Positions 7,144-57,988 of a DNA stretch of 64,000 nucleotides are shown one piece after another. The notes below the pieces were generated by a model. The model was not told the origin of the DNA and did not search any database. It was given only the letters and a program-made list of their open reading frames with translations. This DNA is from a virus. Made by a program: the position numbers and the translations under genes. Positions within the stretch are counted from its first letter, which is position 1. Each line of letters opens with the position of its first letter. The stretch lies in the IMG/VR virus record IMGVR_UViG_3300045988_162215. One strand, written 5' to 3'.

Positions 7144-8679
7144 TTAAAAAATGCTGTCTTCTTCAACTTTTATTTTCAAATCTTCAATTTCACATAATTC
7201 ATAATCATATTTTGTAACAAACATTGGGTCAATTCTGCAAATACCTTTGTTTGATTTACACCACATCAAGACATCTTTCCATCTTCCACGTCTATTCTTA
7301 TACACTGAAATCTTGGTGTCTGGAGGTTCAAAACCGCCTTTTTCAAGAATTGGCTTTAAAGCTTCTAGATCCTCTTGGCTAACTTTTAGCATAATCATAC
7401 CTAGATCGATTTTATCGGCAATCGACTTCGCGCCACGGAGAAGATTCTGGTCATATTCTTTTGCATCTCGATAGTCTCCATTTAGCTGAGTTGCTGAAAG
7501 AATAAAAATTCCATACTGATTACATATATCTTTTAATGTAATGGAAATCATAAAAAGAATATTATCTTCTCTAAGACGAACGCCGCCACTTCGTTTAGTT
7601 ACCTCTTCCAAAATTTTCATTGAGGTATGCAGATAATCAAGGAAGCAATACTGAATATCATGCTCTCTGATATTTCTTTTTATTGTATTCTCGATATCTT
7701 TTAATGAAAAATCTGGTAATGCTTTAAAATAAATTTGACTTTGTTTTAACAATAGAGAAGCTTTAGCAACACGTTCCCATTCACCTGCAAAATAATCTGC
7801 ATTTAGAATATGTTCTTCATCCACTCCAGAAACAAAAGCCAACATCATAGTTTGAATTTCATCAATCGGCTGCTCTGTTGCAATATATAATACTTTCTGC
7901 GGCTTCCCTGTGGTAACCCATTGTCCAGATTTGAGATCATACATCTGACCGCATCCAATGTAGCAAGCATCTGCTACCATAGACCTAGTTTTACCGATAC
8001 CTGTAGCCGCGGACCGCAAATAGAACTTTTTAAGTCTTGCGCCTTTTGTTATAGTATTGACATAATGACCGAATAAAGGATATCCAATTTCAGGATTCTC
8101 TTTTAAATCTTCAAGTAATTCATCAATACCAAAACCAACTTGACATTCATCATTTGGAGTTTCATCCACATATGTACTTCTTATTTCATCAATTTTTTCA
8201 TCAATCGTATCTGCAATCTTTTCTATTGGAGTATTATCAAACCAATCTTCTTGTTCTGCTTTTTTCTTTGTGTCAAAAATATTATCTGGATCATATAACC
8301 AAGATAAATCCATGTGTGCTAATCGTTCATAACCTCTAAAAAGAGTCATTTTTTTAAGTCTGTTATAATAATAATTAAAAGTAGCTAATGATGCTACATC
8401 AGAACATTTTAATAAATATTCTCTTCCTTGATAGGCTTTATATATACCCATTTTTTTAGGACGCTGATTAAGATAATCTTCAATCGCTTCTATTGTTATA
8501 GTTTGAGCACCCATTTTGTATAAATTATAAATAGGTTCAAAAACTATTTTATGAAAATCATCATAAAAATCTTCTTCATCAAAAGAATATTTATCTTCTG
8601 CATCTAAAAGATTCGGATTATTAAAAACCGTCCCAATAACCTGAATCAGTGCAGATTTATCAACATATTTACTTGCCAT
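7144..8679 (-). CDS. replicative DNA helicase, DnaB/gp41-like
   Basis: Walker A SAATGIGKT. C-terminal RecA-like region SATQLNGDYRD...RGAKSIADKIDLGMIML. Confidence 0.75.
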   Translation of the reverse strand: MASKYVDKSALIQVIGTVFNNPNLLDAEDKYSFDEEDFYDDFHKIVFEPIYNLYKMGAQTITIEAIEDYLNQRPKKMGIYKAYQGREYLLKCSDVASLATFNYYYNRLKKMTLFRGYERLAHMDLSWLYDPDNIFDTKKKAEQEDWFDNTPIEKIADTIDEKIDEIRSTYVDETPNDECQVGFGIDELLEDLKENPEIGYPLFGHYVNTITKGARLKKFYLRSAATGIGKTRSMVADACYIGCGQMYDLKSGQWVTTGKPQKVLYIATEQPIDEIQTMMLAFVSGVDEEHILNADYFAGEWERVAKASLLLKQSQIYFKALPDFSLKDIENTIKRNIREHDIQYCFLDYLHTSMKILEEVTKRSGGVRLREDNILFMISITLKDICNQYGIFILSATQLNGDYRDAKEYDQNLLRGAKSIADKIDLGMIMLKVSQEDLEALKPILEKGGFEPPDTKISVYKNRRGRWKDVLMWCKSNKGICRIDPMFVTKYDYELCEIEDLKIKVEEDSIF

Positions 8680-10239: not shown

Positions 10240-11288
10240 CAGATATGTTATCGCAAAGGCTTTTTATCCTTTGCTTCTTATGGTTTCCCATAAGTTCAGC
10301 GTACCCTCTTATCTCTACTTAAAGAGATATTAGACTCTCTTGGATTTATTATATTCTAAAAATTTGTTATGTTTTCTTTCTAAGTAAATGCTATCTAATG
10401 AATAAAGTTTTTCAAACAAAGGTACTGAATAAATTGTACTAATAGAAAATTCCCATAAACCTCTATTATCTTGGTTTAAACTACTAGGTACATTTAGAAA
10501 ATTTTTTATATCTTCTAATAATTCAGACCTATGCGCACATAATCTAAATCTACAATAATCTTTATCAATAGAAATAGTGCCATCACCATCAAAAAAACCT
10601 AAAATAAAAGCATATGTTAAGTTTTTATCTTCAAATAATGGTAAATGCATTTCTTTATAAGTTTTTCTATTTACAATACCAAATTTACTTAAAGCTTCTT
10701 TTTGCGGTCCGCTACTCCAGTTTAAACGAACAACAGAAAAACCGTTACCAGTTTCTCTTTCTATAATAGGATTTTCTATTTCAAGTTCTTTTTTTATTTT
10801 TTCTAGAATCTCTTTATCAACTGCGGATAATTCTATATTGATCCTATTCCTATCTTTTTCAACCCAACCATCTGCTGCAATAAAACCTAAAATCCAAGCT
10901 TGTGTGGGCGTTTTTATATCATTAAAATATGTATGATTAACACTTTTTGCTCTAGCAGCATTTGAAATTTGATTCTGTTGAGCTTTTGTTCTTATTTGAA
11001 CATTATTAGATTCTAATATTTTTTTGACTCTATATGGAGTAATATTAAAAATTCTTGACAGTTGAGCCATAGAAGCTCCATTTGTATATTGTAAAATTAA
11101 TTCGTTGATGTCCATATCTGTAAACATACTCCTTAACAATTTTTAGTTTCAAAATCCACGCGTTGCGCGTGTTGCTTATTTTACTAAACAACTTCCGCTA
11201 GGATTGGCATGAGATATATAATCTTTTAGCTTTCCCTCTTTTAGTCTAATGTTTGCTTTATAGTTACCTATAAAGAGACCAGTTATTT
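10240..11288 (-). mobile_element. group I intron (inferred) carrying a LAGLIDADG homing endonuclease gene, inserted in Walker A codons of the ATPase gene
   Basis: P1-like pairing of exon AGACU with intron GGUCU including a U.G wobble at the splice site. P2-like hairpin CTTTATAG-GTAA-CTATAAAG. The intron ends ...AUAUCUG before exon 2 GGUAAAACC. Splicing restores the P-loop YGGWKT|GKTTTA. Confidence 0.55.
10330..11139 (-). CDS. LAGLIDADG homing endonuclease (double-motif), intron-encoded
   Basis: Two LAGLIDADG motifs: LGFIAADGWV and LGFFDGDGTI. Confidence 0.8.
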   Translation of the reverse strand: MLRSMFTDMDINELILQYTNGASMAQLSRIFNITPYRVKKILESNNVQIRTKAQQNQISNAARAKSVNHTYFNDIKTPTQAWILGFIAADGWVEKDRNRINIELSAVDKEILEKIKKELEIENPIIERETGNGFSVVRLNWSSGPQKEALSKFGIVNRKTYKEMHLPLFEDKNLTYAFILGFFDGDGTISIDKDYCRFRLCAHRSELLEDIKNFLNVPSSLNQDNRGLWEFSISTIYSVPLFEKLYSLDSIYLERKHNKFLEYNKSKRV

Positions 11289-14401: not shown

Positions 14402-15391
14402 TTATTTATTTCCTTTTGTACTGTTGAAACCATAATTATAAGCATCATAAAGATTGATATAATATTTTTCTTTTTCATCAAGTTTTTCTCTTGGACATTC
14501 TTCTAATAATTCCCAAGAATAAGAATCTAATCCATATTCAAGCATATCTTTATAAAGTTTGTTTCCTTGCGGGGTGTCGATTCCGAGCCCGCATTTCGCG
14601 TGTTGCTTCCACCTAGAAGCCAGGTCTACGCTCTGACCAATATAGCACATATCTGTTTTTTGATTTGTGATTTTATAAATGCCTGTAACAATAGAGGTAC
14701 CTAGAACATTATTACATAATTCATTCATTCTTTTCTGATAAAAGGTTGACCAAATTAACATACTTAATACTCTAGGTTTATTTAATCGAGGTCGAATAGA
14801 TTCTAATGCTTGAATATCATTTTTTTCTGATTCTGGAATTGATAAACAATAGAAAGAAAGCTTCTCCTTTATCTCTTTTTCTTTAAGCGCGGCCGCGCGT
14901 GTGGCGTCCCTAGTTGACTTAATAGATGCTAGCTCATCCTGAACCCGCGACAACTCAGCTAAGCACTCTTTCTGTTGTTGTGAATATGATTCTTTTAAAA
15001 CTTCAATTCTTTTATCGTATTCTATTGTTTTCTTTTCATAATCATTATTAAGCAATTCAAAATATTGCTCAAAAGCTTTTTGAGATAATGCTTTTTGATT
15101 TGAAAAGGCTTTGTCTACTTTATCTTTTATATTTTCTAAACGATCTAGTGTTTCTTGTTCTTGTCTTTTAGAAGCAGTATTTAATGTTTCTAAATAATTA
15201 GCTTCTTCATTTAAGTTTAATAATTGTTTTTTTAATTCTTCGTTTTTACTTTCAATTATTCTATTTTCATTATCTGTTTTTTCATTTAATATATGTATAT
15301 TCTTATTATCTTTTTTTATTTTAATATAATTAAATAGAAGAATCAATAAGATAATTATTAAAATAAGAATAATATATATTATAAGTATCAA
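14402..15391 (-). CDS. GIY-YIG nuclease-domain protein with N-terminal transmembrane helix and long coiled coil
   Basis: N-terminal ILIIYIILILIIILLILLF. Central heptad-rich region. C-terminal GIYKITN...YIGQS...R..H GIY-YIG motif. Confidence 0.6.
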   Translation of the reverse strand: MILIIYIILILIIILLILLFNYIKIKKDNKNIHILNEKTDNENRIIESKNEELKKQLLNLNEEANYLETLNTASKRQEQETLDRLENIKDKVDKAFSNQKALSQKAFEQYFELLNNDYEKKTIEYDKRIEVLKESYSQQQKECLAELSRVQDELASIKSTRDATRAAALKEKEIKEKLSFYCLSIPESEKNDIQALESIRPRLNKPRVLSMLIWSTFYQKRMNELCNNVLGTSIVTGIYKITNQKTDMCYIGQSVDLASRWKQHAKCGLGIDTPQGNKLYKDMLEYGLDSYSWELLEECPREKLDEKEKYYINLYDAYNYGFNSTKGNK

Positions 15392-24535: not shown

Positions 24536-25804
24536 TTACATATTTTGTGCTAATTCAGCAATTCTTGAACGGTGAATTTTATTTAATGTTATTTCAGAAT
24601 AGAAAGGTTGTCCTTTAAATACTTCTGATACCCTTCTCATTCCATTATTAGCGCCTGCATATAGTGCAGAATCAACTTGAGCATTAGAATCTCCATCAAG
24701 AATACAAATACTATCTTCTCCAATTCTTTGGAGTGCGAGCCGCATTAGTTCGATATCAAGATTTTGTGCTTCTGTTATATAAATACCGGCATGCATTCCT
24801 GTGGTATCAAAACCTCGGATATCAGACATAGGTAACAAAAGAATATCTCCTTCTGCAAGAAGTTTCTCTACATAAACCCTATCTCCTATTTTACTATTTA
24901 AAAAGTTGCCGATTTGAGAATCCATTAACTTTTCATCTCTCGAGCCTGGATAAAAACCTAATTTAGCTGAACCTTTTGTTGCTACAGTGTTACAGAAAAT
25001 AATTATTTTATCAATAATTCCTCTTTCATATAAGTCAAATAAATAAGCAAATGAGAGATATGATTTACCACTTCCTGCGGGACCGCGTAACATACAAAGC
25101 TGGCTGTGCTGTAGTGCATCCAAAGCCGCGACCTGATATGGATCTTTTCCGGTTACTTTACCAAACTGTCTTGTATTTAAAACTGGGAAATTAAATTTTT
25201 GATATTTATTATCTCTATAAACAAAACTATCAATAATTTCATCATTATCATTAGTAATAAATAAATATTCATTTTCTAATAAATTATATTTATTATCTCC
25301 TAATGTATAAACTTTACTATAAAATTCTGCTAGTTCTTCTTCGGTCATTTGAATCTTCTCATAACCGCAATACTCTTCTTCCTCTTCTACGATAGTGTTG
25401 ACTGTTAAACCTTGAGAACTTGCTAATAAAGAACAGTTTAAATCTTTAGTAGAGAATACTAAAGTTTCGTCTTTTTCAAGATAATGTTCTTTAGCATAAC
25501 ATGCAGAACAAATAATTTTTAAATCATTATTGATTGGAATACCTGTTTTTAACGCCAATTTCTCTATTATGCTATTATAAAGAATTGCAACATATTTATC
25601 AGTTTTTTCTGATAAAAGGCGAGTTACTATTCTAGCTTGATACTTTATATCTTCGTCTTTATTACTTGAAGTTTTTATATTTTCTAATTCTTCAAGTGTA
25701 ATAGAGGAAATAAAAAATTTTTCATCTTTATTAAAGATATTTTTTGCATCGTGTAATAATGCACAAGTATCATAAAACATTACTGTGGTCTTAATAATAC
25801 TCAC
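24536..25804 (-). CDS. phoH: PhoH-like ATPase with N-terminal PIN domain (YlaK-like)
   Basis: N-terminal FYDTCALLHD (PIN). Walker A GPAGSGKSYLS. Confidence 0.75.
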   Translation of the reverse strand: MSIIKTTVMFYDTCALLHDAKNIFNKDEKFFISSITLEELENIKTSSNKDEDIKYQARIVTRLLSEKTDKYVAILYNSIIEKLALKTGIPINNDLKIICSACYAKEHYLEKDETLVFSTKDLNCSLLASSQGLTVNTIVEEEEEYCGYEKIQMTEEELAEFYSKVYTLGDNKYNLLENEYLFITNDNDEIIDSFVYRDNKYQKFNFPVLNTRQFGKVTGKDPYQVAALDALQHSQLCMLRGPAGSGKSYLSFAYLFDLYERGIIDKIIIFCNTVATKGSAKLGFYPGSRDEKLMDSQIGNFLNSKIGDRVYVEKLLAEGDILLLPMSDIRGFDTTGMHAGIYITEAQNLDIELMRLALQRIGEDSICILDGDSNAQVDSALYAGANNGMRRVSEVFKGQPFYSEITLNKIHRSRIAELAQNM

Positions 25805-25861
25805 TCCTTTTGTATAAAATTATTCCTCACGAAATATAAAAAATCGTGAGGAATGATTAAC

Positions 25862-26350
25862 TTATTTTGTTTTATTCTGTTTCTTTTTTCTGTCAATAGC
25901 ATTAGTTACAATATCTCTCTGTTTAATAGAGAAGAAAATATCATCTTCAAGGTCAAGCTTTTCATTCTTTAAATTATTTAATTTTCTAGTAAGAATATTA
26001 AACTGTCGATAGAAAATCTTTGCGGATTTTTCTTTAGGATCCCAACCTTTTGTTGATTGGCAAGCTGCAAGTAGATTCTGGTATATCTTAAACTGCTTTT
26101 TTGTATCTGCAATTTCATAAATTAAAGCATTACGAACTGCCCGCTTATAAGCAATAGTCGCTCCAAAGAGATAACTTTTTTTCTTATTATCTTCTGGATG
26201 AACAAAGCACTTTCCTCTAAAAAGCTTATTCTTATAGCTAATTATAACATCTGTTCCATTAAAAGAATCGCTCCATCCTTCACTTACAATATGAAATTTT
26301 CGTTCAATAAACTTTTTCATTATATTATCTCCTTTATAAATAGTTTTCAC
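25862..26350 (-). CDS. hypothetical protein
   Basis: ORF only. Confidence 0.35.
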   Translation of the reverse strand: MKTIYKGDNIMKKFIERKFHIVSEGWSDSFNGTDVIISYKNKLFRGKCFVHPEDNKKKSYLFGATIAYKRAVRNALIYEIADTKKQFKIYQNLLAACQSTKGWDPKEKSAKIFYRQFNILTRKLNNLKNEKLDLEDDIFFSIKQRDIVTNAIDRKKKQNKTK

Positions 26351-26894
26351 ATTCTTTTACCTTTGTAAAAATTTCTTCAATAATATCATCCAATAAAATT
26401 GGAGTTGAATTATGTGAATCTACTCCTACATGATACATATATGGTCTATCTTCATAAAAGTTGGTCTGCTGGTGCGTGTGACCGAACAAATTGATCACAC
26501 ATTGTTTGATGCTTTTGTCACTAAGATTCGCGGTTAGGGTTGGAAAATGAGAAAGATAAAAATTCATTTTTTTATACTTAATCATAGTTGCCCACCCCTC
26601 CAAAGTTACATTAGGAAGGGTGTCATAAAGTTTCCATCTAGCATCTGTATCATGGTTTCCTCTAATAATATGGATATCTCCGTTTAATTTTTTAAGACAA
26701 TCCATACCATTTGTGCTATTTCCGAGCATAACATCGCCTAAATGATAAACAGTATCTTCTGTAGAAACTACTTCATTCCATTTCTTAATAATATCTGCAT
26801 CATTTTCCGCGGCACTGGCGTACCCGCGCGGACCCCAAATAAATTCTCTATCATGTCCAAAATGAGTATCGCTCGTAATCCAAATCTTTCCCAC
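26334..26894 (-). CDS. calcineurin-like metallophosphoesterase (phosphatase)
   Basis: SDTHFGHD, GDVMLGN, GNHD motifs. Confidence 0.7.
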   Translation of the reverse strand: MGKIWITSDTHFGHDREFIWGPRGYASAAENDADIIKKWNEVVSTEDTVYHLGDVMLGNSTNGMDCLKKLNGDIHIIRGNHDTDARWKLYDTLPNVTLEGWATMIKYKKMNFYLSHFPTLTANLSDKSIKQCVINLFGHTHQQTNFYEDRPYMYHVGVDSHNSTPILLDDIIEEIFTKVKECENYL

Positions 26895-27407
26895 TTAATT
26901 CCACCCACTTTCTAAAATATATCTCTTAATTTCGCCATCTTCTTCAACAATATTTATTGCATCAAATCCTTCTTCAAATTTTGGAATAGTGAAGTTATTA
27001 AACATATTTTTAATAGCATCTTCTGGAACTAACTCTCTTCCAATTCTATGAGAATTTCTTTCTAATGCTGTTTCAAGACTTGTTCTTAAAACAATAGCTT
27101 CAACCTTAACACCTCTAAGGTTCACACCTAAAGAATTAAGTAATTTAAGGCGACTGCCCTGATTCAGATGTGTAGCATCTGCAACTGTAACATCATAATC
27201 TTTAAGTCCTCTTACAATCTCTTCAATAAAAGTCTTAAAAACCTTTTTCTCCTTAGAAAAATACTCTTCGTCTTCTCTAACAATAGAAAAACGAACCTGA
27301 TCTCTAGATACAATTTTCCAATTACTCTGACAATGAGTGTTGATAAATGTAGATTTTCCAGATCCTGGAATGCCAACCATTACATATAATATTTTATTTT
27401 TTGTCAT
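26895..27407 (-). CDS. P-loop kinase, polynucleotide-kinase-like
   Basis: VGIPGSGKSTF Walker A. Size and order (kinase then phosphatase) resemble Pnkp kinase modules. Confidence 0.5.
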   Translation of the reverse strand: MTKNKILYVMVGIPGSGKSTFINTHCQSNWKIVSRDQVRFSIVREDEEYFSKEKKVFKTFIEEIVRGLKDYDVTVADATHLNQGSRLKLLNSLGVNLRGVKVEAIVLRTSLETALERNSHRIGRELVPEDAIKNMFNNFTIPKFEEGFDAINIVEEDGEIKRYILESGWN

Positions 27408-27669
27408 TATAAACCAACTCCTTTAATTGACCATATGTTCTTATACGATTACCATTTTCATCAAAATTATGATTTTCAAATTCAAATAGAAAATCATTAT
27501 AAGTATAAGAACCTTTACACTCTACATGATTAACTTCTTTTTGACACTTTAAGCAGAACAGCTTTTTTAAATGTCCACCTTCGCGTTCTGCGCCTTTCTT
27601 CCTAGGAATGGGAATCCCGCGGCTGCCGCACGCAGTACAATATAAATCTGATATTATTGTTTTTATCAT
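27394..27669 (-). CDS. zinc-ribbon protein
   Basis: CTACGS...CLKCQ. Confidence 0.35.
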   Translation of the reverse strand: MIKTIISDLYCTACGSRGIPIPRKKGAEREGGHLKKLFCLKCQKEVNHVECKGSYTYNDFLFEFENHNFDENGNRIRTYGQLKELVYNDKK

Positions 27670-27678
27670 TATATATAA

Positions 27679-27984
27679 TCAACTCCTTTGTATTTCATAT
27701 GTTAATCCTTTTATATGTATTACTTTTTTATCTTTTACATAGTGATTCCAAAATTTTGCACCCAAGCTATCTTTTGAAGTAAGAGTATATCTAAGTGATT
27801 TATTAGGAAAAGCCATTAAAATATCATCGACAATAGATTTTCCATATCCTTCACCTCTATGGTCTTTATTAACTTCAAAATATTTACAATAGACATAATT
27901 TTCATGTTCTACAATAGTAGCATAAGCTATTCTAGTGATATTTCTACGATTTACAAACTCATAAATATTAAAAGTTTTTTCCAT
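27679..27984 (-). CDS. small GNAT-family acetyltransferase
   Basis: HRGEGYGKSIV motif region. Confidence 0.45.
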   Translation of the reverse strand: MEKTFNIYEFVNRRNITRIAYATIVEHENYVYCKYFEVNKDHRGEGYGKSIVDDILMAFPNKSLRYTLTSKDSLGAKFWNHYVKDKKVIHIKGLTYEIQRS

Positions 27985-28024
27985 ATAATTTTATCAACCC
28001 TTTCTTTATTCATATTATGTATAT

Positions 28025-28053
28025 ATTATATCATAAAATTTATAAAAAATAAA
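28025..28053 (-). promoter_or_regulatory. extended -10 promoter (TGATATAAT, weak -35 inside terminator U-tract)
   Basis: Upstream of the GNAT gene. Confidence 0.4.
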
Positions 28054-28078
28054 GTGGCAGGAATTAACCTGCCACTTT
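28043..28078 (-). terminator. intrinsic terminator after the RNA ligase gene
   Basis: AAAGTGGCAGG-TTAATT-CCTGCCACTTT plus ATTTTTTAT. Confidence 0.55.
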
Positions 28079-28082
28079 AATC

Positions 28083-51436: not shown

Positions 51437-51510
51437 TTGAGGAGGAGAGACTCGGACTCTCGGTCTTTCGCGTATCAGACGAATGCTTTAACCATCTAAG
51501 CTACTCCTCA
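51437..51510 (-). tRNA. tRNA-Ile (anticodon GAT)
   Basis: Acceptor TGAGGAG/CTCCTCA. Anticodon stem TTCGT/GCGAA with loop CTGATAC. T arm GAGAG-TCCGAGT-CTCTC. Confidence 0.55.
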
Positions 51511-51511
51511 G

Positions 51512-51573
51512 CGCTGCACACAGGATTCGAACCTGCAAAGCCTTTCAGCTCCCTCACCACCCGGACATACAGC
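51512..51573 (-). pseudogene. degenerate tRNA-like element (62 nt; intact T arm and acceptor, defective D and anticodon arms)
   Basis: T arm GCAGG-TTCGAAT-CCTGT and acceptor GCTGTAT/GTGCAGC. Anticodon region GGAGC-TGAAAG-GCTTT has a 6-nt loop. Confidence 0.4.
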
Positions 51574-52356
51574 ATACATTTTAGAATTAAAAATTTTATT
51601 TTAATTTCCTTACTTAACGCCTAGACATTGTTAAGGGGTCTGCGTTGCCGCACCATCTTCCTTTATTTCCTCATTCCATAAAAATAAAATTTTAATTCTT
51701 CAACTCGGTACTTTTCATCTCAACTTCTAATTTGCCTAGATAGTAACCGATAATTCTTATTAAGACCTGAGATAGTCGATCAAATATTTTAATCTAAAAC
51801 CGGCAATAGTTAAAAGATTAAGTCCGTTATAGTTACGAACCCACAACTCGAAATTTCATTTCCTACCTCTTATTAGCGTGGGTGGGCGTCGCCGCACATA
51901 AAGTTATGTTTAATGGAAACTTTATGTTATAAACCATATAATATGGAACTGCATTGGGTGTAAGTTATCCTACTTTAGACTCTTACTCGACTCAAGGTCA
52001 ACGCCATTCTTCATGGATGCTTTTGCAGCGGCTCTCGTCGCTATATTCCATATACTACACTTATTTTTAGCAGTAGTCGCATAGCTTTCTTTTATAGTCT
52101 GTTTGGCTGCCGACTTTCTATCGCGTTTTTGTTCGCATCACCCTGGGTACTGATAGACATTTCGCGCTCCCATTGAACCAGCTTTGAATTTAAGACCTAC
52201 ACTGTGTGGCGAGATCTATGGTCTTTAGTTTATTCAACTAATGAGCGTTATGCACTCTGCTCTCGCTTTTCAGTCTTATTTATATCTAACGGGCTTCCTG
52301 CACCTAACAGGATAATTAAGTAGGAGATCTTTTAGACTAACACCCGTTAGAAATAA

Positions 52357-52439
52357 CGCCAGCACTAGGATTCGAACCTAGATATCCAGATGGATAGAAA
52401 ACTTAGCAAGTTTCTGCGATGCCCTTACGCCATACTGGC
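52357..52439 (-). tRNA. tRNA-Ser (anticodon GCT), type II with long variable arm
   Basis: Acceptor GCCAGTA/TGCTGGC. Anticodon loop TTGCTAA. Variable hairpin ATCCA-TCT-GGAT. T arm CTAGG-TTCGAAT-CCTAG. Confidence 0.7.
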
Positions 52440-52443
52440 AAGA

Positions 52444-52516
52444 AGCCCGTAACGGGAATCGAACCCGTATCAACTGCTTGGAAGGCAGCTATGCTAGCCG
52501 TTACACCACACGGACA
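52444..52516 (-). tRNA. tRNA-Gly (anticodon TCC)
   Basis: Acceptor GTCCGTG/TACGGGC. Anticodon stem GCTGC/GCAGT with loop CTTCCAA. T arm ACGGG-TTCGATT-CCCGT. Confidence 0.65.
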
Positions 52517-52520
52517 TAAA

Positions 52521-52566
52521 TCTGGGCAGTAGGATTCGAACCTACAACGTCTTGCGTGCCTTAGCA
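52521..52566 (-). pseudogene. orphan tRNA 3' fragment (T arm GTAGG-TTCGAAT-CCTAC plus acceptor 3' strand TGCCCAG-A) immediately downstream of ORF 52568..53002
   Basis: No complementary CTGGGCA 5' strand or D/anticodon arms found upstream. Confidence 0.45.
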
Positions 52567-52567
52567 A

Positions 52568-53002
52568 TCATAATGTAGATAGAATATCTTCGGCTTTAAA
52601 ATCTTTAGCCTGCTTTTGTGTAGAAAGTCTTGTGCCAACAGTCCAAAATTTTGTCTCATAAGTTCCAAATACAGGGAACATATAAAACTTTCCATTGAAC
52701 TCTGTCATAAAATAGTCCACATCTTCAGTAGAGTAAGTTACTTTTTTTGTTTTTCCATTGTCACGCACTTCATATTTAGTACGAACAAGGAAGCCTGTTT
52801 CATCTACTGGCATAGCGTGTTTTACTTGTATCTTGTAAAACTTTCCGTTTTTTTCAATTACTAAGTCATACTTTTGATGATTTCCGATTGGAATAAGAAC
52901 ATTCCAGCCTTGTTCAATCAAATATACCTGACATTTTAATTCTGTAATATCTCCAATTTGAGATGGATTAAGGTTTTCCAATACTATCAATCCTTTCTCC
53001 AA
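52568..53002 (-). CDS. PD-(D/E)xK-like nuclease-fold protein inserted in tRNA array (paralog of 54716..55129), candidate homing endonuclease
   Basis: Shared QIG.I.E...L.EQGW.V..PI.....YDLV.EK.GKFY..Q.K with the paralog. D...EK.GK resembles a PD-(D/E)xK core. Confidence 0.4.
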   Translation of the reverse strand: MEKGLIVLENLNPSQIGDITELKCQVYLIEQGWNVLIPIGNHQKYDLVIEKNGKFYKIQVKHAMPVDETGFLVRTKYEVRDNGKTKKVTYSTEDVDYFMTEFNGKFYMFPVFGTYETKFWTVGTRLSTQKQAKDFKAEDILSTL

Positions 53003-53068
53003 AGATATTCTTTATGAATTTCCAAGACAAGCAAGCGTTTATCCTAGCTGAGTTAAACCAGCTAAAAA

Positions 53069-53142
53069 TGGACATGGGGAGAATCGAACTCCAAACACCC
53101 TTGTGGGTTCTCCACGGTGACGGCATCCAGCACTACATGCCC
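53069..53142 (-). ncRNA. tRNA-like gene with non-canonical anticodon loop (identity unresolved)
   Basis: Acceptor GGGCATG/CATGTCC, D stem GTG/CAC, T arm GGAG-TTCGATT-CTCC. Anticodon region GTGG-AGAAC-CCAC gives a 5-nt loop. Confidence 0.35.
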
Positions 53143-53146
53143 ATAA

Positions 53147-53219
53147 TGTGCCTAGAGGGGCTCGAACCCTCGACTCTCAAATTAAAAGTTTGATACTCTG
53201 CCAGCTGAGTTATAGGCAC
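53147..53219 (-). tRNA. tRNA-Lys (anticodon TTT)
   Basis: Acceptor GTGCCTA/TAGGCAC. Anticodon stem TCAAA/TTTGA with loop CTTTTAA. T arm GAGGG-TTCGAGC-CCCTC. Confidence 0.7.
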
Positions 53220-53443
53220 TTAATTTGGCATTGGATAGCTTATCTTCCCCGGCTATCAACGGCGAGTTATTTATAGTCTACTCTTAGACTAAGTGATGCC
53301 AACTCACTTTTCTTATAGACACATAAGCGTGATTTCAGTACCGACTTCCATCTGAAATTCATACTCTTTCTGCTACGCACCGCTATTGCGTTAACACAGA
53401 TACCCTTTGTTTAATTAGCGATTTTATTCTCGTCGGAGTTTAA

Positions 53444-53515
53444 TTCTTCAGGTTAGATTTGAACTAACAGCTTTGGTTCTGTAAACCAATGTTTTATCCA
53501 TTAAACTACTGAAAA
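53444..53515 (-). tRNA. tRNA with anticodon ACA (Cys-decoding position; unusual A34)
   Basis: D stem GTTT/AAAC. Anticodon stem TTGGT/ACCAA with loop TTACAGA. T arm GTTAG-TTCAAAT-CTAAC. AT-rich acceptor TTTTCAG/CTGAAGA. Confidence 0.45.
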
Positions 53516-53815
53516 TTATTTACAATATTTATCTATAAATGAATCACAACCAAGATCGCAACAAAGCTTATCTAATTCTTTTGTTGGCATTGACTGAAAT
53601 TCATCTTTAATTACATAAACATCCCAACAACAGCTTTCCAAAAGTTCTTCGTCACTAATATCATCAAAACAATCATATGATTCAGTAACCTCTAGAGCCA
53701 TGTCAAGTCCAATTTCATCTGCTTCTGCTAATGTACTAACATCATAAACAGCTAATGTGTTAATACCATGCATTCCACCGTATGTACTTTCATAAGCATA
53801 AATAAAAACCTTCAT
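53516..53815 (-). CDS. acidic Cys-rich hypothetical protein
   Basis: ORF with promoter cassette 53849-53877 upstream. Confidence 0.35.
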   Translation of the reverse strand: MKVFIYAYESTYGGMHGINTLAVYDVSTLAEADEIGLDMALEVTESYDCFDDISDEELLESCCWDVYVIKDEFQSMPTKELDKLCCDLGCDSFIDKYCK

Positions 53816-53848
53816 ATAATTATCAGCCCTTTCTTTAACTTTCTATAA

Positions 53849-53877
53849 TAATTATATCAAAAATTTTATTATTTTTC
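53849..53877 (-). promoter_or_regulatory. promoter TTGAAA-N17-TGATATAAT plus RBS cassette
   Basis: Upstream of 53516..53815 and the downstream tRNA. Confidence 0.55.
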
Positions 53878-53879
53878 AA

Positions 53880-53950
53880 ATATGTGCATTAGGATTCGAA
53901 CCTAAACAAAAAGCTCCAAATGCTTTCGTGCTACCATTACACCATACACA
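53880..53950 (-). tRNA. tRNA-Gln (anticodon TTG), second copy
   Basis: Acceptor ATGTGTA/TGCACAT, D stem GTG/CAC. Anticodon stem AAAGC/GCTTT with loop ATTTGGA. T arm TTAGG-TTCGAAT-CCTAA. Confidence 0.55.
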
Positions 53951-54082
53951 TCTTCAATTATTATATAATTGAATAAATTTAATTTAACGCGCGTTCTGTA
54001 TATTAGGTCATTACATTAAAGCAGTTCTATGGTTGAACTTTTACCAGAATGGGATTCCAAACCCTCGACTTTCTTGTAATGA

Positions 54083-54153
54083 AGCATGAAGTTGGAGTCG
54101 AACCAACCTATGAGGTTTTGCAGACCTCCTCCTAGCCGCCCGGACCTCCATGC
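54083..54153 (-). tRNA. tRNA-Cys (anticodon GCA)
   Basis: Acceptor GCATGGA/TTCATGC. Anticodon stem GAGGT/ACCTC with loop CTGCAAA. T arm GTTGG-TTCGACT-CCAAC. Confidence 0.65.
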
Positions 54154-54231
54154 AAAATATAAACTAGACACTAATATTTAATAATTGATTTGTCTTTTAA
54201 TTCTTTAATATTATAGCTGTATGTATCTAAA

Positions 54232-54303
54232 TACTCCCGACAGGATTTGAACCTGCATAGCGTGCCTTAGAAGGACACTGCCTATCCATTAGGCTACGGA
54301 AGC
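54232..54303 (-). tRNA. tRNA-Arg (anticodon TCT)
   Basis: Acceptor GCTTCCG/CGGGAGT, D arm GCC-TAATGGATA-GGC. Anticodon stem GTGTC/GGCAC with loop CTTCTAA. T arm GCAGG-TTCAAAT-CCTGT. Confidence 0.65.
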
Positions 54304-54307
54304 AAAA

Positions 54308-54380
54308 TACGGGTGGTGAGATTCGAACCCACACTTGACGAGGCTTAAACTCGTTGTCTCTGCCGTTGGACTACACCCGC
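54308..54380 (-). tRNA. tRNA-Leu (anticodon TAA) with atypically short variable region
   Basis: Acceptor GCGGGTG/CACCCGT. Anticodon stem ACGAG/CTCGT with loop TTTAAGC. T arm GTGGG-TTCGAAT-CTCAC. Variable region only 5 nt. Confidence 0.5.
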
Positions 54381-54668
54381 TTATCAGGCTAGCTGCAGTG
54401 GTATCGAGGAATTGCACCCCGGTTTCCTCTTTATAAGGAAGGCGACTTATCTAGTTAGTCGAATACCCTAGCCTATAAAAATGGCAGTCCACTCTTCTGC
54501 CGATTTAATGAGTTTCTTGCTTCTCCTGCGCAAGGCTTAATTAAATGCTTTATTCTAGGTGTTGTCGCGACACGTCACTAGAAAGAGTGTTATAATAAAA
54601 CTAAGCACATAAAATTTTTAGATTTACAATCCAAACCATCTTCTTTAAAATTGCTGTTTGTGCTTAAA

Positions 54669-54743
54669 TGGGCGGAGAGGGAATCGAACCCACTCGGGAC
54701 ATAAAGCCTTCGGTTTTATTCCTCGTCCGAGATTTGAACTCGG
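54669..54743 (-). pseudogene. two tandem tRNA 3' fragments (T arm plus acceptor 3' strands) at the 3' end of ORF 54716..55129
   Basis: CCGAG-TTCAAAT-CTCGG-ACGAGGA (overlaps the ORF's last codons) and GTGGG-TTCGATT-CCCTC-TCCGCCC-A. Confidence 0.5.
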
Positions 54744-55129
54744 TATTTATATGTTTGAAACCCTTGATTATTTGCATTTGGCTCTGTTCTTAATCTTATA
54801 GATTTTCGATTTTGCTGAATATCTTTTATTGGTATTAGCCACATATTCAAATCTTTGTTTACACAAAATAAATAATCAAGCTCAGAATGGTTTAAAAGAT
54901 TATCATAAACACCGCCATTTGTACCTCCAGTGGAACGAAAATCAATATCTCCATTTTCAGTTTGAGTAGCCTTACATTGGACAGTATAAAATTTTCCATC
55001 TTTTTCAACCACTAAATCATACCACTGAGTGTCATTTATTGGAAGAGATATTGTATATCCTTGACAAGTGAAATAATTTATTGCCATACTTAAACCAATT
55101 CTTCCAATTTGTTTTCTGTTAGTTTTCAA
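54716..55129 (-). CDS. PD-(D/E)xK-like nuclease-fold protein (TTG start) inserted between halves of a tRNA-like gene
   Basis: Paralog of 52568..53002. RBS AAAGGAG. Flanked by complementary acceptor strands GGGCGGG (upstream) and TCCGCCC-A (downstream). Confidence 0.45.
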   Translation of the reverse strand: MKTNRKQIGRIGLSMAINYFTCQGYTISLPINDTQWYDLVVEKDGKFYTVQCKATQTENGDIDFRSTGGTNGGVYDNLLNHSELDYLFCVNKDLNMWLIPIKDIQQNRKSIRLRTEPNANNQGFQTYKYRVQISDEE

Positions 55130-55149
55130 AATTATATAAAAACTCCTTT

Positions 55150-55191
55150 CGAGACCAGACCGATGTGTCTACCTTATCACGCTACCCGCCC
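55150..55191 (-). other. tRNA 5' half (acceptor GGGCGGG, D-like arm, start of anticodon region) transcribed from promoter 55214-55242
   Basis: GGGCGGGTAGCGTGATAAGGTAGACACATCGG.... Its acceptor strand is complementary to the 3' fragment at 54669-54676, about 480 nt downstream. Confidence 0.45.
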
Positions 55192-55213
55192 TTAATTTTT
55201 ACTTTCTATAAAT

Positions 55214-55242
55214 ATTATATCAAAAATATTTATGAAAATCAA
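55214..55242 (-). promoter_or_regulatory. promoter TTGATT-N17-TGATATAAT
   Basis: Drives the tRNA 5' half plus PD-(D/E)xK ORF transcript. Confidence 0.55.
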
Positions 55243-55244
55243 TT

Positions 55245-55284
55245 TGATATTTAAAGCGGCAACCGGTTTGAGATCTCAAACCGG
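55245..55284 (-). terminator. palindromic hairpin (possible terminator) between tRNA-Met and promoter 55214-55242
   Basis: CCGGTTTGAGATCTCAAACCGG perfect palindrome flanked by GC-rich arms. Moderately U-rich tail. Confidence 0.35.
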
Positions 55285-55383
55285 GCAACCGCGTTGCAAA
55301 GAAAGGTTTTATATGAACCAAGTTTTTTAACAGAACTTGGAAAACTGGGAAAGGAAGGAAGGTCAATCATGAATCTGACCTAA

Positions 55384-55454
55384 TGGCGGAAGCAGGACTC
55401 GAACCTGCGTCTCTAGCCTATGAAGCTAGCAAGGAGCCACTCCTCTATTCCGCG
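55384..55454 (-). tRNA. tRNA-Met/Ile2 (anticodon CAT; C1xC72 mismatch suggests possible initiator type)
   Basis: Acceptor CGCGGAA/TTCCGCC. Anticodon stem CTAGC/GCTAG with loop TTCATAG. T arm GCAGG-TTCGAGT-CCTGC. Confidence 0.6.
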
Positions 55455-56115
55455 ATATTATCATTTACTAATTTAATATTCTCAATAAAAACAAAATAAA
55501 ATAGTTCTTCAACTTACTAAACATATCTTCAAAATTATTACTCTACATAGGAGATAAAGGCTGAGCAAGGCTAGCTAATTCCTTACTTCTTTACCCCAGC
55601 ATAATTGCCATGTCTATGACAGGATTGATTACCTATACCTTTCACTTAAACCATTCAGCATATATAATTTTATAAAAAATTCTTCATTCTTTAATCTTTT
55701 AATGAAATTAAATATCTGCACTTTGCATTAAGCTACTTAGAGTTGCATACAGTTCTTATATCAACATTTCTGTTGTTTCATTGCAAAACGGATTATTGGT
55801 ATTTCCTAGGATTGACTTTGAGTACCACCTCGCCGCCCTAACTAGGAGAGGAAAGCATTTCTGCTAACTTTCTATTGCTCCGCCGAACCGCGTCCTGAGC
55901 TATTTTGCGATATATCTAGTGCCATGACTTTACTTTGGGTTTCCAACCTCTTCATTTCAGTATCACTACTTTCAATGCGGACCACTATCCACAAGTATCC
56001 TTGTTTCGTTCGTGCCGAGCTCTTTTCGCCATGCCTTAGCTGTGTGGTTAGCACATCTACACTAAGATATTCATTTTGTTTTTATTCAGAATATTAAATT
56101 TTCAATGAACATAAA

Positions 56116-56188
56116 TGCTGCCCCTAGGAGTCGAACCCAGTGTCATCGGATATAAGCCGATTCCCCAAAACCGTCGAGGACAAGCAGC
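56116..56188 (-). tRNA. tRNA-Ile (anticodon TAT, AUA-decoding)
   Basis: Acceptor GCTGCTT/GGGCAGC. Anticodon stem ATCGG/CCGAT with loop CTTATAT. T arm CTGGG-TTCGACT-CCTAG. Confidence 0.5.
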
Positions 56189-56579
56189 TAGTTGCATTAC
56201 TGCTCCATTACGCGCACCTGTCTACGCAACTTCCGCACTACGCCTGGACACTTGATATTCTTAGGATTTTCTTCAAGTGTTGCCAATCTATTCTTTAAAA
56301 TTGCTAATTTCTGTTCTCTTGTCATAATATCCAATCCCTTTCTATTGTTATATAATAGATCCAATCCTGCTGGTTATTAGCAAGTAAACATCGTTCACAA
56401 ACCAGCTGGATCTATACCACATTTTAGACAGTAGCCGCCTGTACGCTTCACCACTCACGTACCTAGGAGAATTTCTGCATTTTGCTTTCAATCTAACAAA
56501 ACAACTCTAAAACTAAAACAACTTTACTTACTGTTTAAGTTGAATCAGAGGCTAATTTGATTAACTTGCATATAAGTAG

Positions 56580-56655
56580 TGATCCCGGCGGGACTTGAAC
56601 CCAAGCGCATCTCGACCTTGAAAGGGTCGAATCCTAGCCTTTAGAAGACGGGACC
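56580..56655 (-). tRNA. tRNA-Glu (anticodon TTC)
   Basis: Acceptor GGTCCCG/CGGGATC, D stem TTCT/AGGA. Anticodon stem CGACC/GGTCG with loop CTTTCAA. T loop TTCAAGT. Confidence 0.55.
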
Positions 56656-56658
56656 AGA

Positions 56659-56731
56659 TGACTCCAGATAGATTTGAACTATCATCCCCTGACTGAGAAT
56701 CAGGAATCCTGAACCATTAGACGATGGAGCC
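56659..56731 (-). tRNA. tRNA-Glu (anticodon CTC)
   Basis: Acceptor GGCTCCA/TGGAGTC. Anticodon stem CCTGA/TCAGG with loop TTCTCAG. T arm GATAG-TTCAAAT-CTATC. Confidence 0.55.
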
Positions 56732-56857
56732 TTGAATTAGGAATTTTGGCAAGATTCCTTTAACTTGGAGCCCTTATCATCCTCGAACCCTAGGAGGTTT
56801 TGTTACTTTTTATTAACGAGAGTTAGAACAAATTTTCCTTTCGCAGTTTCTCTCAAA

Positions 56858-56930
56858 TGGATTGTATTGGTGTCGAACCAATTCCTCTTGGGCTTCAACC
56901 AAGCGCTTCTACCGAGTTAGCTTACAATCC
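56858..56930 (-). tRNA. tRNA-Phe (anticodon GAA)
   Basis: Perfect acceptor GGATTGT/ACAATCC. Anticodon stem CTTGG/CCAAG with loop TTGAAGC. T arm ATTGG-TTCGACA-CCAAT. Confidence 0.7.
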
Positions 56931-56979
56931 TTTCTAAAGTGACTAAAGTCGCCTTCCATAATTACATCTCCTTTTCATT

Positions 56980-57008
56980 TACTATAATAATTATATCAAA
57001 AATTTTTA
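56980..57008 (-). promoter_or_regulatory. promoter TTGATT-N17-TGATATAAT plus RBS cassette
   Basis: Upstream of tRNA-Phe, tRNA-Glu and further tRNAs. Confidence 0.55.
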
Positions 57009-57186
57009 TGAAAATCAATTAAATTGCTTTTTGTCTATGTATTCAAGAAGCATAACTTGGATACATAAGGTGAGCTAGTACGTCAACTCCACACATCTCA
57101 ATCTAACGGCATATCTTAGACATCTTTATTCATCATTTCGTATGATAGGAGTGAGGGAAAGCTATACTCGACAATCTCTCCTATAA

Positions 57187-57260
57187 CGTCTTGATATTTA
57201 TCCCCTCAAGCGGGTGAGGCGACATCGAAAGATTCGAACTTTCAACCTTCCTTCCATACG
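57187..57260 (-). pseudogene. degenerate tRNA-like element (canonical T arm GAAAG-TTCGAAT-CTTTC, acceptor pairs, no anticodon arm)
   Basis: CGGCATT...GATGTCG acceptor with wobble pairs. The central region cannot form a 5-bp stem and 7-nt loop. Confidence 0.3.
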
Positions 57261-57413
57261 GACGGTTATGCTTCCTTTTACACCAATGCCGCAAATGTAC
57301 TTATTGCAGTAAGTACACCGAGTTATTTTGGCTTTTTCGTATAATATACTGCAATATATCATTGACTAATATCAACCAAACAAGTCCTTCGACTAGTACT
57401 CCGCACGCAGACC

Positions 57414-57485
57414 TTAATTCGGTCCGGAGGGAATCGAACCCTCATAATCTTCTCTTATAACTCTACCAAACTCCTCGTCGTTGGC
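57414..57485 (-). pseudogene. degenerate tRNA-like element (T arm GAGGG-TTCGATT-CCCTC, acceptor TGGTCTG/CGGACCG, no foldable anticodon arm)
   Basis: As described. The anticodon region TAGAG-TTATAAG-AGAAG does not pair. Confidence 0.3.
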
Positions 57486-57619
57486 AGACCACACTTGCTT
57501 TACACCAGAGGTTTAGTGATGCCCCTCTATCATCAATGGCTAACTTTGTTTTTTACACCGGAAGGTTCCGCCGCACCCACCATCAACACTCATTAACAGC
57601 GAAGTTCACCTAGAGTAAA

Positions 57620-57692
57620 CTCCCACAACAGGGCTCGAACCTGTGACCCACGGTTTAACAGACCGTTGCTCTACCAACTGAGCTATATGGGA
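57620..57692 (-). tRNA. tRNA-Asn (anticodon GTT)
   Basis: Canonical D arm GCTC-AGTTGGTA-GAGC. Anticodon stem ACGGT/ACCGT with loop CTGTTAA. T arm ACAGG-TTCGAGC-CCTGT. Acceptor TCCCATA/TGTGGGA. Confidence 0.75.
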
Positions 57693-57916
57693 ATATTAAA
57701 GAGAGCAACCACGAAGGGATAGTCTAGGAAGATTTCACGCTCTCACGCGATAATTATTTCTCAGATTTTTTATATTGCGATCACTGAGAAATGAACAAAT
57801 TATCAACGATTTTTTCTCGCCCACTAAAAAGACCGCGATTTATTACTACAACTTATTGTCGCTTTTGCCCAGATAGGTTAGTAAGTTGCAACTACGTACG
57901 CCCTATCAAACGTTAA

Positions 57917-57988
57917 TTCCGATTATGTGAATCGAACACATATTACCGGGTTACAAAGCCGGGGTTCTAGCCTTTGAACTAAATCGGA
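57917..57988 (-). tRNA. tRNA-Thr (anticodon TGT)
   Basis: Perfect acceptor TCCGATT/AATCGGA, D arm GTTC-AAAGGCTA-GAAC. Anticodon stem CCGGC/CCCGG with loop TTTGTAA. T arm ATGTG-TTCGATT-CACAT. Confidence 0.65.

Follow-up and report, generated by a model that had tools for sequence, protein, structure and literature searches.

The DNA under study is a stretch of 64,000 nucleotides from a virus (IMG/VR record IMGVR_UViG_3300045988_162215; hereafter the window), which carries an array of tRNA genes at 51437..57988. Within the array lie two open reading frames (ORFs), ORF1 (52568..53002) and ORF2 (54716..55129), each of them inside an insert in the anticodon loop of a tRNA or tRNA-like gene. The array, its ORFs and all other window features named below are on the minus strand. 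With default settings ARAGORN reports 17 tRNAs in the window, 16 of which fall within the array, and skips both interrupted genes. Here, we focus on the two inserts, on the structures formed by their ends and on a class of related inserts in other phages, and we weigh how such inserts might be removed from a tRNA transcript.

Both ORFs match the Pfam family PF11645 (PDDEXK_5), for which the cut-off is 26.1 (ORF1, E = 6e-23, 81.8 bits; ORF2, E = 2e-18, 67.2 bits). They are paralogues, about 26% identical, and share the cores YDLVIEKNGKFY and YDLVVEKDGKFY, which bears out a first-pass annotation that had placed two paralogous ORFs with a common core at these positions. The solved structure of I-Ssp6803I (PDB 2OST) is matched by ORF1 at E = 1.1e-9, with YDLV...QVK aligned, and by ORF2 at only E = 0.2. 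In an alignment of 12 diverse members (A1), residues D38, Q51 and K53 are invariant and align with YDLV...VQVK of 2OST; we take these to be the residues of the catalytic core (D ... Q/E-x-K), as in the literature on I-Ssp6803I. From the Pfam and PDB matches, both ORFs are assigned to the PD-(D/E)xK homing endonucleases of I-Ssp6803I type, I-Ssp6803I itself being, according to a review, the first homing endonuclease with this fold (PMC3384342). ORF2 encodes 137 amino acids (aa) and the mechanically called ORF1 144 aa. The likely start of ORF1 is a TTG at 52990 that follows the ribosome-binding site GGAGAAAGGA and gives a protein of 140 aa; its closest homologues are mostly 135-140 aa long.

ORF2 is embedded in a gene for tRNA-Tyr(GTA). 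A sigma-70-like promoter at 55214..55242 (TTGATT, 17 nt and a TG-extended TATAAT; 10/12 matches) precedes exon 1 at 55156..55191, which consists of the acceptor strand GGGCGGG, a D arm, the 5′ strand of the anticodon stem (TCGGT) and the loop nucleotides C32, U33 and G34. The insert follows at 54719..55155, 437 nt between tRNA nucleotides 34 and 35. Its first seven nucleotides, GTCTCGA (55149..55155), form the 5′ strand of an acceptor-like stem and are followed by the ribosome-binding site GGAG and the ORF. The last ORF2 codons (R-V-Q-I-S) run across a T-arm mimic, CCGAG-TTCAAAT-CTCGG (54727..54743; hairpin CCGAGTTCAAATCTCGG), as the first-pass annotation had noticed, and after it come the 3′ strand of the acceptor-like stem, ACGAGGA (54726..54720), and a discriminator-like A (54719) that is the last nucleotide of the insert; stem strand and A together occupy 54719..54726. 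Exon 2 (54669..54718) begins with U35, A36, A37 and A38 and continues with the 3′ strand of the anticodon stem (ACCGA), a long variable arm (GGC-TTTAT-GTC), a T arm, the acceptor strand TCCGCCC and the discriminator A at 54669. The ORF2 stop codon TAA (54718..54716) coincides with tRNA nucleotides 35-37 and thus lies inside exon 2. Only about 26 nt of the insert are non-coding.

When introns are allowed, ARAGORN joins 55191..54669 into a single type II tRNA with a 437-nt insert, a 7-bp acceptor stem and a perfect 5-bp anticodon stem. Two earlier suggestions hold, namely that a 5′ tRNA half lies just downstream of its own promoter and upstream of the ribosome-binding site of ORF2, and that a 3′ piece ending TCCGCCC-A is complementary to the distant acceptor strand. 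Exon 1 ends ...TCGGT-CTG at 55156 and exon 2 starts TAAA-ACCGA at 54718, so that the joined loop reads CTGTAAA (joint ATCGGTCTG-TAAAACCGA, also written ATCGGTCTG-TAAAACCGAAGG), and the two exons joined in silico are called tRNA-Tyr(gta). For the split gene ARAGORN gives the name Ser(GGA), which we reject: ORF2 homologues consistently accompany tRNA-Tyr, and an exact metagenome search with the joined junction, allowing G or T, gave two matches, both with T (GTA). The two matching loci (L101 and L102) each hold an uninterrupted tRNA-Tyr(GTA), which shares about 90% identity with the joined exons and reads ...ATCGGTCTGTAAAACCGA..., and this makes the junction unambiguous. An exact search of viral contigs for the intron-less junction gave no match. 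Among 80 viral loci with relatives, ORF2 homologues lie in or beside tRNA-Tyr(GTA), some preceding an intact gene by 0-21 nt and others residing within the anticodon loop; a tRNA-Tyr is found 0-21 nt downstream of the homologue in 12 loci and upstream in three. One contig with an identical ORF2 (L004, 1270..1310) has a changed anticodon-stem strand in exon 1, ACATCGGT becoming ACCCTAGT, which breaks the stem; the rest of the element is identical, and the change looks like a patch introduced by recombination.

ORF1 lies in a gene that resembles tRNA-Asp(GTC). The 5′ part, at 53027..53063, comprises a hairpin and D-like region, the anticodon-stem strand CTTGC and the loop nucleotides TTGT (32-35). 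The insert, 468 nt at 52559..53026, separates nucleotides 35 and 36 with an ambiguity of 1 nt. Exon 2 (52521..52558) supplies C36, A37 and C38, the anticodon-stem strand GCAAG, the variable region ACGTT, the T arm GTAGG-TTCGAAT-CCTAC, the acceptor strand TGCCCAG and the discriminator A. The 3′ piece that the first-pass annotation saw behind ORF1 is therefore real (52558..52521), but it is not an orphan, its 5′ part lying at about 53063..53027. The insertion site is defined by a sibling contig, L001, which has an uninterrupted allele in the same place: the flanks are about 97% identical around an indel of 468 nt that is the ORF1 insert. Comparison with relatives lacking the ORFs has thus fixed the sites of both insertions, through L001 for ORF1 and L101 and L102 for ORF2.

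The ORF1 insert has no T-loop and about 50 nt of non-coding sequence, and it follows the same end logic as the ORF2 insert, with a terminal stem that starts at nucleotide 1 and a 3′ overhang. Its ends pair as CTTGG/CTAAG from the first nucleotide, leaving a 1-nt 3′ overhang, and further helices (TCATAA/TTATGA and AGAATATCTT/AAGATATTCT) close the ORF. Homologues of ORF1 in seven loci (L086-L092) occupy split genes for tRNA-Asp, in which the junction reads CTGT | CTTRR...YYAAG-N | YAC; the hosts are canonical in L086-L090 and L092 (L090 with the anticodon GTT), and the anticodon stem is broken in L091. In these inserts exon 1 ends in U35 and the last insert nucleotide is G or T.

The ends of the ORF2 insert form what we call a mini-helix. 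In the window GTCTCGA and ACGAGGA pair at 5/7 positions, following the 5-7-5 hairpin CCGAG-TTCAAAT-CTCGG. In relatives the stem strands have other sequences (GTTATAT/ATATAGC, GGTAGAA/TTCTATC, GCGAGAG/CTTTCGC) and pairing is kept, at 6-7/7 positions; many of these inserts end in N73-CCA directly abutting exon 2, and that of the window belongs to a CCA-less subclass. Across 14 distinct Tyr inserts, 92.4% of cells are paired, compared with 66% in shuffled and at most 45% in slid controls. Two-sided changes occur in 15/17 pairs, and the observed score was reached by 0/500 shuffles, in a test that leans towards structure in that junctions were located partly by pairing. The commonest pair at stem position 2 is a U-G wobble, which points to RNA rather than DNA. 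Terminal inverted repeats acting at the DNA level are unlikely on these grounds: wobble pairs are frequent, U-G predominates at the second position of the stem, and the T-loop motif is specific to one strand.

The mimic is also tied to the split state. It is present in 17/22 contexts in which the host tRNA is split and in 1/22 in which an intact tRNA lies downstream (Fisher p = 1e-6, kinship ignored), the two classes having been set solely by the location of the host acceptor 5′ strand, independently of the mimic. In a fold of the full 523-nt precursor the pairing probability of the T-arm mimic is about 1.0. The RNA of the ORF2 insert hence mimics the acceptor/T-arm half of a tRNA in which an mRNA replaces the D and anticodon arms. 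The inner T-arm/acceptor piece, which had been read as a second tRNA fragment, is instead the 3′ half of this covarying mini-helix.

The same arrangement recurs in many gut phages. A strict scan demanded a T-loop motif in the mimic and in the host T arm, at least 6/7 pairs in the stem, a perfect 5-bp anticodon stem, at least 6/7 pairs in the host acceptor stem, U33 and a purine at position 37; a looser scan without T-loop or GC requirements was swamped by AT-rich false positives. In 494 kb of loci the strict scan found 17 unique cases, with 0 in reversed-sequence controls. Lowering the threshold to 5/7 stem pairs adds the window element, L011, L017 and two doubtful cases (L046 and L056), and the controls remain at 0. 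Recurrence in many independent phage contigs, together with the empty controls, shows that the split arrangement is not due to chance. The host tRNAs are Tyr, Asn, Glu, Lys, Leu and Gly, and the insertions fall at positions from 32/33 to 36/37. Inserts of the set are 47-861 nt long, and in 17/17 strict cases the insert extends exactly from stem nucleotide 1 to N73 or CCA and its flanks, once joined, give back a 5-bp anticodon stem with a 7-nt loop. The Tyr insert of the window obeys this boundary rule: its end ...ACGAGGA-A is followed by TAAA, and a 7-nt loop and 5-bp stem are rebuilt.

Within this common framework the cargo varies. Long inserts carry PD-(D/E)xK, HNH or GIY-YIG ORFs, and ORF-less inserts of 47-66 nt contain little beyond the mini-helix; the inserts at L036 (3288-3421) and L033 (1742-1866), at 47-50 nt, are examples. 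In tRNA-Gly(TCC), one locus (L045, 2948..3867) has an insert of 847 nt with a GIY-YIG ORF, and another (L044, 2948..3178) one of 158 nt without an intact ORF; in the latter the ORF is deleted and the stem, T-arm mimic and ACCA are all intact. The short ORF-less inserts and L044 therefore identify the mini-helix, not the ORF, as the conserved core.

We are confident of the anatomy and mobility of the inserts. In their anatomy they are a previously undescribed variety of tRNA intron with an endonuclease gene, and at the DNA level the first-pass proposal of tRNA introns containing ORFs fits: the insertions into the anticodon loop are precise, uninterrupted counterparts exist and the proteins are relatives of I-Ssp6803I. 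The explanation that we favour is that the inserts are mobile, endonuclease-bearing elements of tRNA anticodon loops that have no ribozyme and would be excised by tRNA-processing enzymes, the exons being religated; as a whole we give it an even chance. Under this explanation, the upstream promoter would transcribe exon 1, the insert with ORF2 and exon 2 as a single RNA. RNase P would cut on the 5′ side of the mini-helix (55156|55155), and RNase Z or a similar tRNA 3′-end endonuclease would cut after the discriminator (54719|54718). The products would be an endonuclease mRNA with tRNA ends and a base-paired tRNA body nicked in the anticodon loop, with 3′-OH and 5′-phosphate ends, which an ATP-dependent RNA ligase could seal to give a tRNA-Tyr of 86 nt. 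The endonuclease would in turn cut uninterrupted tRNA-Tyr genes of co-infecting relatives and so spread the insert; indirect signs of cutting at insert-less alleles are the occurrence of alleles with and without an insert and, in L001 and L004, a 3′ piece of tRNA-Lys whose first nucleotides are those of the anticodon loop. Excision at the RNA level through the mini-helix seems to us evenly balanced between true and false, and religation to a working tRNA falls somewhat short of that.

The window encodes candidates for the later steps. An RNA ligase at 28083..29306 (PF09414 with an N-terminal OB domain, E = 1.3e-20) could be the exon sealer; its best solved relative is the Naegleria gruberi RNA ligase (5COT, E = 6.6e-28), and it also matches phrog_968 (3e-60). 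A polynucleotide-kinase-like protein (26895..27407; phrog_505, 2.8e-20) and a calcineurin-like phosphoesterase (33692..34402; PF00149, 2.4e-11) may be partners that heal RNA ends. These three genes belong to an RNA-related run at 24536..35977 that also holds a PIN-PhoH protein (24536..25804), an HNH endonuclease (29550..30113), a protein with major-vault-protein shoulder and repeat domains (30702..33197), which is unusual in a phage, and a DUF2828/DUF7788 'RNA-binding protein' (phrog_850; 34508..35977).

Several observations weigh against excision followed by religation. The acceptor-like stem of the window copy has just 5/7 pairs, being mismatched at both ends (G-A and A-A), and in the thermodynamic fold of the 523-nt precursor its pairing probability is about 0.12, the same as that of the split anticodon stem. 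Some copies are decaying (the anticodon stems of L004 and L091 are broken and L007 is degenerate), the split genes of the L038 group do not contain a T-arm mimic, and the tRNA-Lys insert of L001 has a 3-nt tail. The Asp-like gene has no matching 5′ acceptor strand in either the window or the L001 allele, and in the latter (7365-7428) the Rfam tRNA model gives 32.3 bits over positions 8-63 only; this host is probably not a normal working tRNA, and since the uninterrupted allele is aberrant too, the insertion did not cause the loss. The covariation of exons is ambiguous, as it could date back to the time before each invasion, when the tRNAs still worked. The cleavage sites and the ligation are predictions from anatomy. 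Relatives bearing CCA would need a cut exactly behind the CCA, and Bacillus-type RNase Z avoids CCA-bearing precursors, so we assign no enzyme to this step. Ligases of the Naegleria type prefer nicks in duplex RNA, for which a nick in an anticodon loop is not a textbook substrate, and the usual explanation of RNA-repair genes in phages is that they counteract the anticodon nucleases of the host.

Many of these points suit the main rival, a selfish insertion without religation, in which the tRNA gene is killed, the mini-helix lets RNase P and 3′-end enzymes free the endonuclease mRNA and stabilises it, and the tRNA halves are discarded. Phage tRNAs are usually dispensable, and the decaying hosts (L004, L007 and L091), the aberrant Asp-like gene and the low pairing probabilities of the stem and anticodon stem in the window copy would all be expected; nor does any known enzyme cut exactly after CCA while sparing exon 2. 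However, the ORF-less inserts of 47-66 nt hold no mRNA to be freed, yet they have perfect stems, mimics and CCA and reside in canonical tRNAs, and L044 has kept its mini-helix without its ORF. Free-standing homologues are expressed without any mimic, and most split hosts retain 6-7/7 acceptor pairs and 5/5 anticodon-stem pairs across about 440 nt. We regard this rival as unlikely, though a serious contender.

Excision by tRNA enzymes must also be set against self-splicing. That the inserts are degenerate or very compact group I introns, with a ribozyme core overlapping the ORF, is conceivable in that this endonuclease family is known from a tRNA group I intron and that in one related locus (L066) a phage tRNA holds a true core adjoining a PDDEXK_5 ORF. 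Inserts of the ORF1 type, moreover, are placed at site 35/36 behind a U, with G as the last nucleotide of many of them, and site 35/36 is used by group I introns in tRNA-Asp and tRNA-Asn genes of Patescibacteria (PMC13011429). Rfam searches of 7.5 kb, and of each insert alone, nevertheless gave no match to group I or group II introns or to small ribozymes at E values up to 10, and none to the group I core model RF00028, in contrast to L066, which served as a positive control (Intron_gpI core, 61 bits, beside the PDDEXK_5 ORF). The non-coding sequence amounts to only about 26 nt in the ORF2 insert and about 50 nt in the ORF1 insert, and versions without an ORF measure just 47-66 nt. The end rule of group I introns (U before the insert, G as its last nucleotide) is broken by the Tyr insert, where exon 1 ends in G34 and the insert in A; the ORF1-type inserts do have U35, but their last nucleotide is G or T. 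A group I origin is accordingly very improbable. The scan for group I and II introns thus yielded nothing for that part of the original suggestion, and group II introns are rejected in any case, the inserts being 437 and 468 nt long and almost entirely nuclease ORF.

A third possibility is that these are archaeal-type introns with a bulge-helix-bulge (BHB) motif, removed by a splicing endonuclease, the virus then being one that infects a methanogen of the gut. One ORF2 homologue comes from a metagenome bin labelled Methanobrevibacter, and archaeal introns can carry endonuclease ORFs. On inspection, though, neither junction forms two 3-nt bulges with a 4-bp helix: the Tyr junction consists of the anticodon stem, a loop and then a stem of 5-7 bp, and the Asp junction is a continuous helix. 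The endolysin of the window is a muramoyl-alanine amidase with peptidoglycan-binding and SH3 domains, which, with the sigma-70-like promoters, argues for a bacterial host; Shine-Dalgarno sites and a ROOL RNA agree. We think a BHB intron scarcely credible. Staggered cutting of the RNase III type misfits the geometry as well, the overhang being 1 or 3 nt and not 2. Finally, pseudogene debris, in which recombination scattered tRNA halves around free-standing endonuclease genes and left the complementarity behind, could draw on the mosaic tRNA arrays of sibling contigs and on a true 3′ remnant of a resident tRNA-Lys behind an endonuclease-bearing tRNA-Lys in L001 and L004, but it is contradicted by the nucleotide-exact insertions relative to uninterrupted alleles, by an inner 'fragment' that pairs with the opening nucleotides of the insert and shows compensatory changes from lineage to lineage, and by the zero control matches, and is highly improbable.

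Taken together, the inserts may represent a third kind of tRNA intron in the bacterial world, neither self-splicing nor of BHB type, which would depend on RNase P, an RNase Z-like cutter and an RNA ligase, and whose framework of about 47 nt would have been colonised repeatedly by PD-(D/E)xK, HNH and GIY-YIG endonucleases, as group I introns were; we put this forward tentatively.

Comparison with known systems shows where the inserts are familiar and where they depart. The gene for I-Ssp6803I lies in a group I intron that interrupts tRNA-fMet in Synechocystis. The window inserts share with it the PF11645 family, insertion in the anticodon loop and, by inference, the uninterrupted tRNA gene as target; they differ in having no group I ribozyme, their ends being a mini-helix (ORF2) or a plain terminal stem (ORF1), and in being carried by a phage and not a cyanobacterial chromosome. 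Free-standing homing endonucleases occur in phage tRNA clusters, as with segB (GIY-YIG) of T4 and endonucleases of the T5 group. These too are endonuclease genes in phage tRNA arrays that presumably cut the tRNA-region DNA of relatives, whereas the window genes lie within tRNA genes and belong to a different protein family from segB. An insertion of the free-standing, segB-like sort, the other option first considered, is not the state of the window, and it is seen only in relatives. In two cultured phages a PDDEXK_5 gene, annotated as hypothetical, stands free and precedes tRNA-Ser(GCU) by 2-13 nt: the T5-like Escherichia phage SelmaRatti (MZ501103.1, 70652..71023) and Bacillus phage BCP78 (JN797797.1, 2147..2542). 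A protein search with ORF2 among 50,697 GenBank phage records found no cultured phage that bears the insert.

Transfer-messenger RNA (tmRNA) resembles the insert in its order of 5′ acceptor strand, internal ORF, T arm, 3′ acceptor strand, discriminator and CCA, and the Rfam tmRNA model weakly matches the mimic at 54726..54765. It is matured by RNase P. The insert differs in that its ORF, which codes for a nuclease, is supplied with a ribosome-binding site and a start codon, and in that its RNA lies within a further tRNA; pseudoknots were not found in it, and the likeness is one of topology. In mitochondrial tRNA punctuation and in the mascRNA of MALAT1, a tRNA-like fold recruits RNase P and RNase Z and defines RNA ends, but the flanks are unjoined there, unlike those in the window, which are two tRNA halves that would stay base-paired. 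Archaeal BHB introns and split tRNAs likewise involve protein-dependent removal at varied positions followed by ligation; the window inserts have no BHB motif and a bacterial host, and the predicted ends are 3′-OH and 5′-phosphate and not cyclic phosphate and 5′-OH. Closest in description are the 'enigmatic' tRNA introns of Lak megaphages, among them one in tRNA-Tyr(GTA), whose presence varies between related genomes (bioRxiv 10.1101/356790; PMC6784885). They were reported without a mechanism, a mini-helix rule or endonuclease ORFs, and our comparison is by description and not by sequence; the mini-helix framework may explain them. Full-text literature searches found no description of the present architecture, the Lak megaphage report being the nearest.

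The surroundings of the two genes contain further features. In both L001 (6695..7285) and L004 (4258..4850), a tRNA-Lys(TTT) gene houses a third PDDEXK_5 gene (143 aa), which is followed by the 3′ remnant of another tRNA-Lys, from the anticodon loop onwards, which looks like a footprint of homing or repair; in the corresponding place the window has an intact tRNA-Lys without an endonuclease (53147..53219). Three tRNA-like sequences of the window are missed or half-recognised by the tools: one reading GGGCATG...CATGTCC-A, with odd D and anticodon arms (53070..53143), one with an Rfam tRNA match of 28.9 bits, slightly below the cut-off (54400..54467), and a tRNA with a 6-nt anticodon loop (57218..57291). 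A full-length ROOL RNA of 608 nt (55483..56090; Rfam RF03087, 274 bits, E = 1e-62) lies between tRNA-Ile(TAT) on one side and tRNA-Met on the other. Between tRNA-Ile(GAT) and tRNA-Ser(GCT), about 845 nt (51511..52355) have no minus-strand ORF of at least 40 aa and no Rfam match, and may be an undescribed non-coding RNA; a 'tRNA-Arg(ccg)' with a 459-nt intron that ARAGORN proposes at 51511..52058 has poor stems and looks spurious. The array also includes a tRNA with the amber-suppressor anticodon CUA (54231..54304). Neither ORF1 nor ORF2 contains an in-frame TAG. In several related loci (L009, L036, L045, L047 and L065) the endonuclease ORFs remain open only when TAG is translated, which indicates that the phages concerned have recoded this stop codon.

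The arrays of related phages hold other structured RNAs. Directly 3′ of a split tRNA-Asp, L075 (2476..2543) has a match to an HDV-like ribozyme (RF02682, 38 bits, below the cut-off), which recalls the 'theta' ribozymes reported beside gut-phage tRNAs (PMC10879173). A GOLLD-like RNA is found in L092 (3301..3757; 103 bits, below the cut-off), and tmRNA matches in L005 (3292..3705; 63 bits) and L066 (139..628; 97 bits). The remaining genes of the window encode replication, lysis and structural-type proteins of a large phage. Among the replication genes are further genes of homing-endonuclease type, a LAGLIDADG (10330..11139) and a GIY-YIG (14402..15391); selfish nucleases have thus invaded this genome heavily. 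Metagenomes of the pig and human gut yielded contigs whose ORF2 protein is identical, of up to about 143 kb; such contigs stem from the ENA assemblies ERZ940893, ERZ28656836, ERZ943914 and ERZ27255328. Megablast of the array against cultured phages gave no match, and a scan of reference genomes gave distant, uninformative matches only, without a clue to the host.

Bacterial and phage tRNA introns are thought to be group I self-splicers. A mini-helix that ends exactly at the splice sites points to another route, through universal cell enzymes and the RNA ligases of large phages, and if the proposed processing is true, the inserts would constitute a new class of intron. The system is very small, at 47 nt without an ORF. 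Standard tools miss or mislabel such genes, so the tRNA repertoires of phages are under-counted, and this extends to inferences on codon adaptation and stop-codon recoding. The occurrence of one protein family in both free-standing and intron-borne states shows a route from the former to the latter. Should the tRNAs never be rejoined, the inserts would still be a new packaging of a selfish gene, as an mRNA with tRNA ends; should they be rejoined, the RNA-repair ligases of phages would gain a second role besides countering anticodon nucleases.

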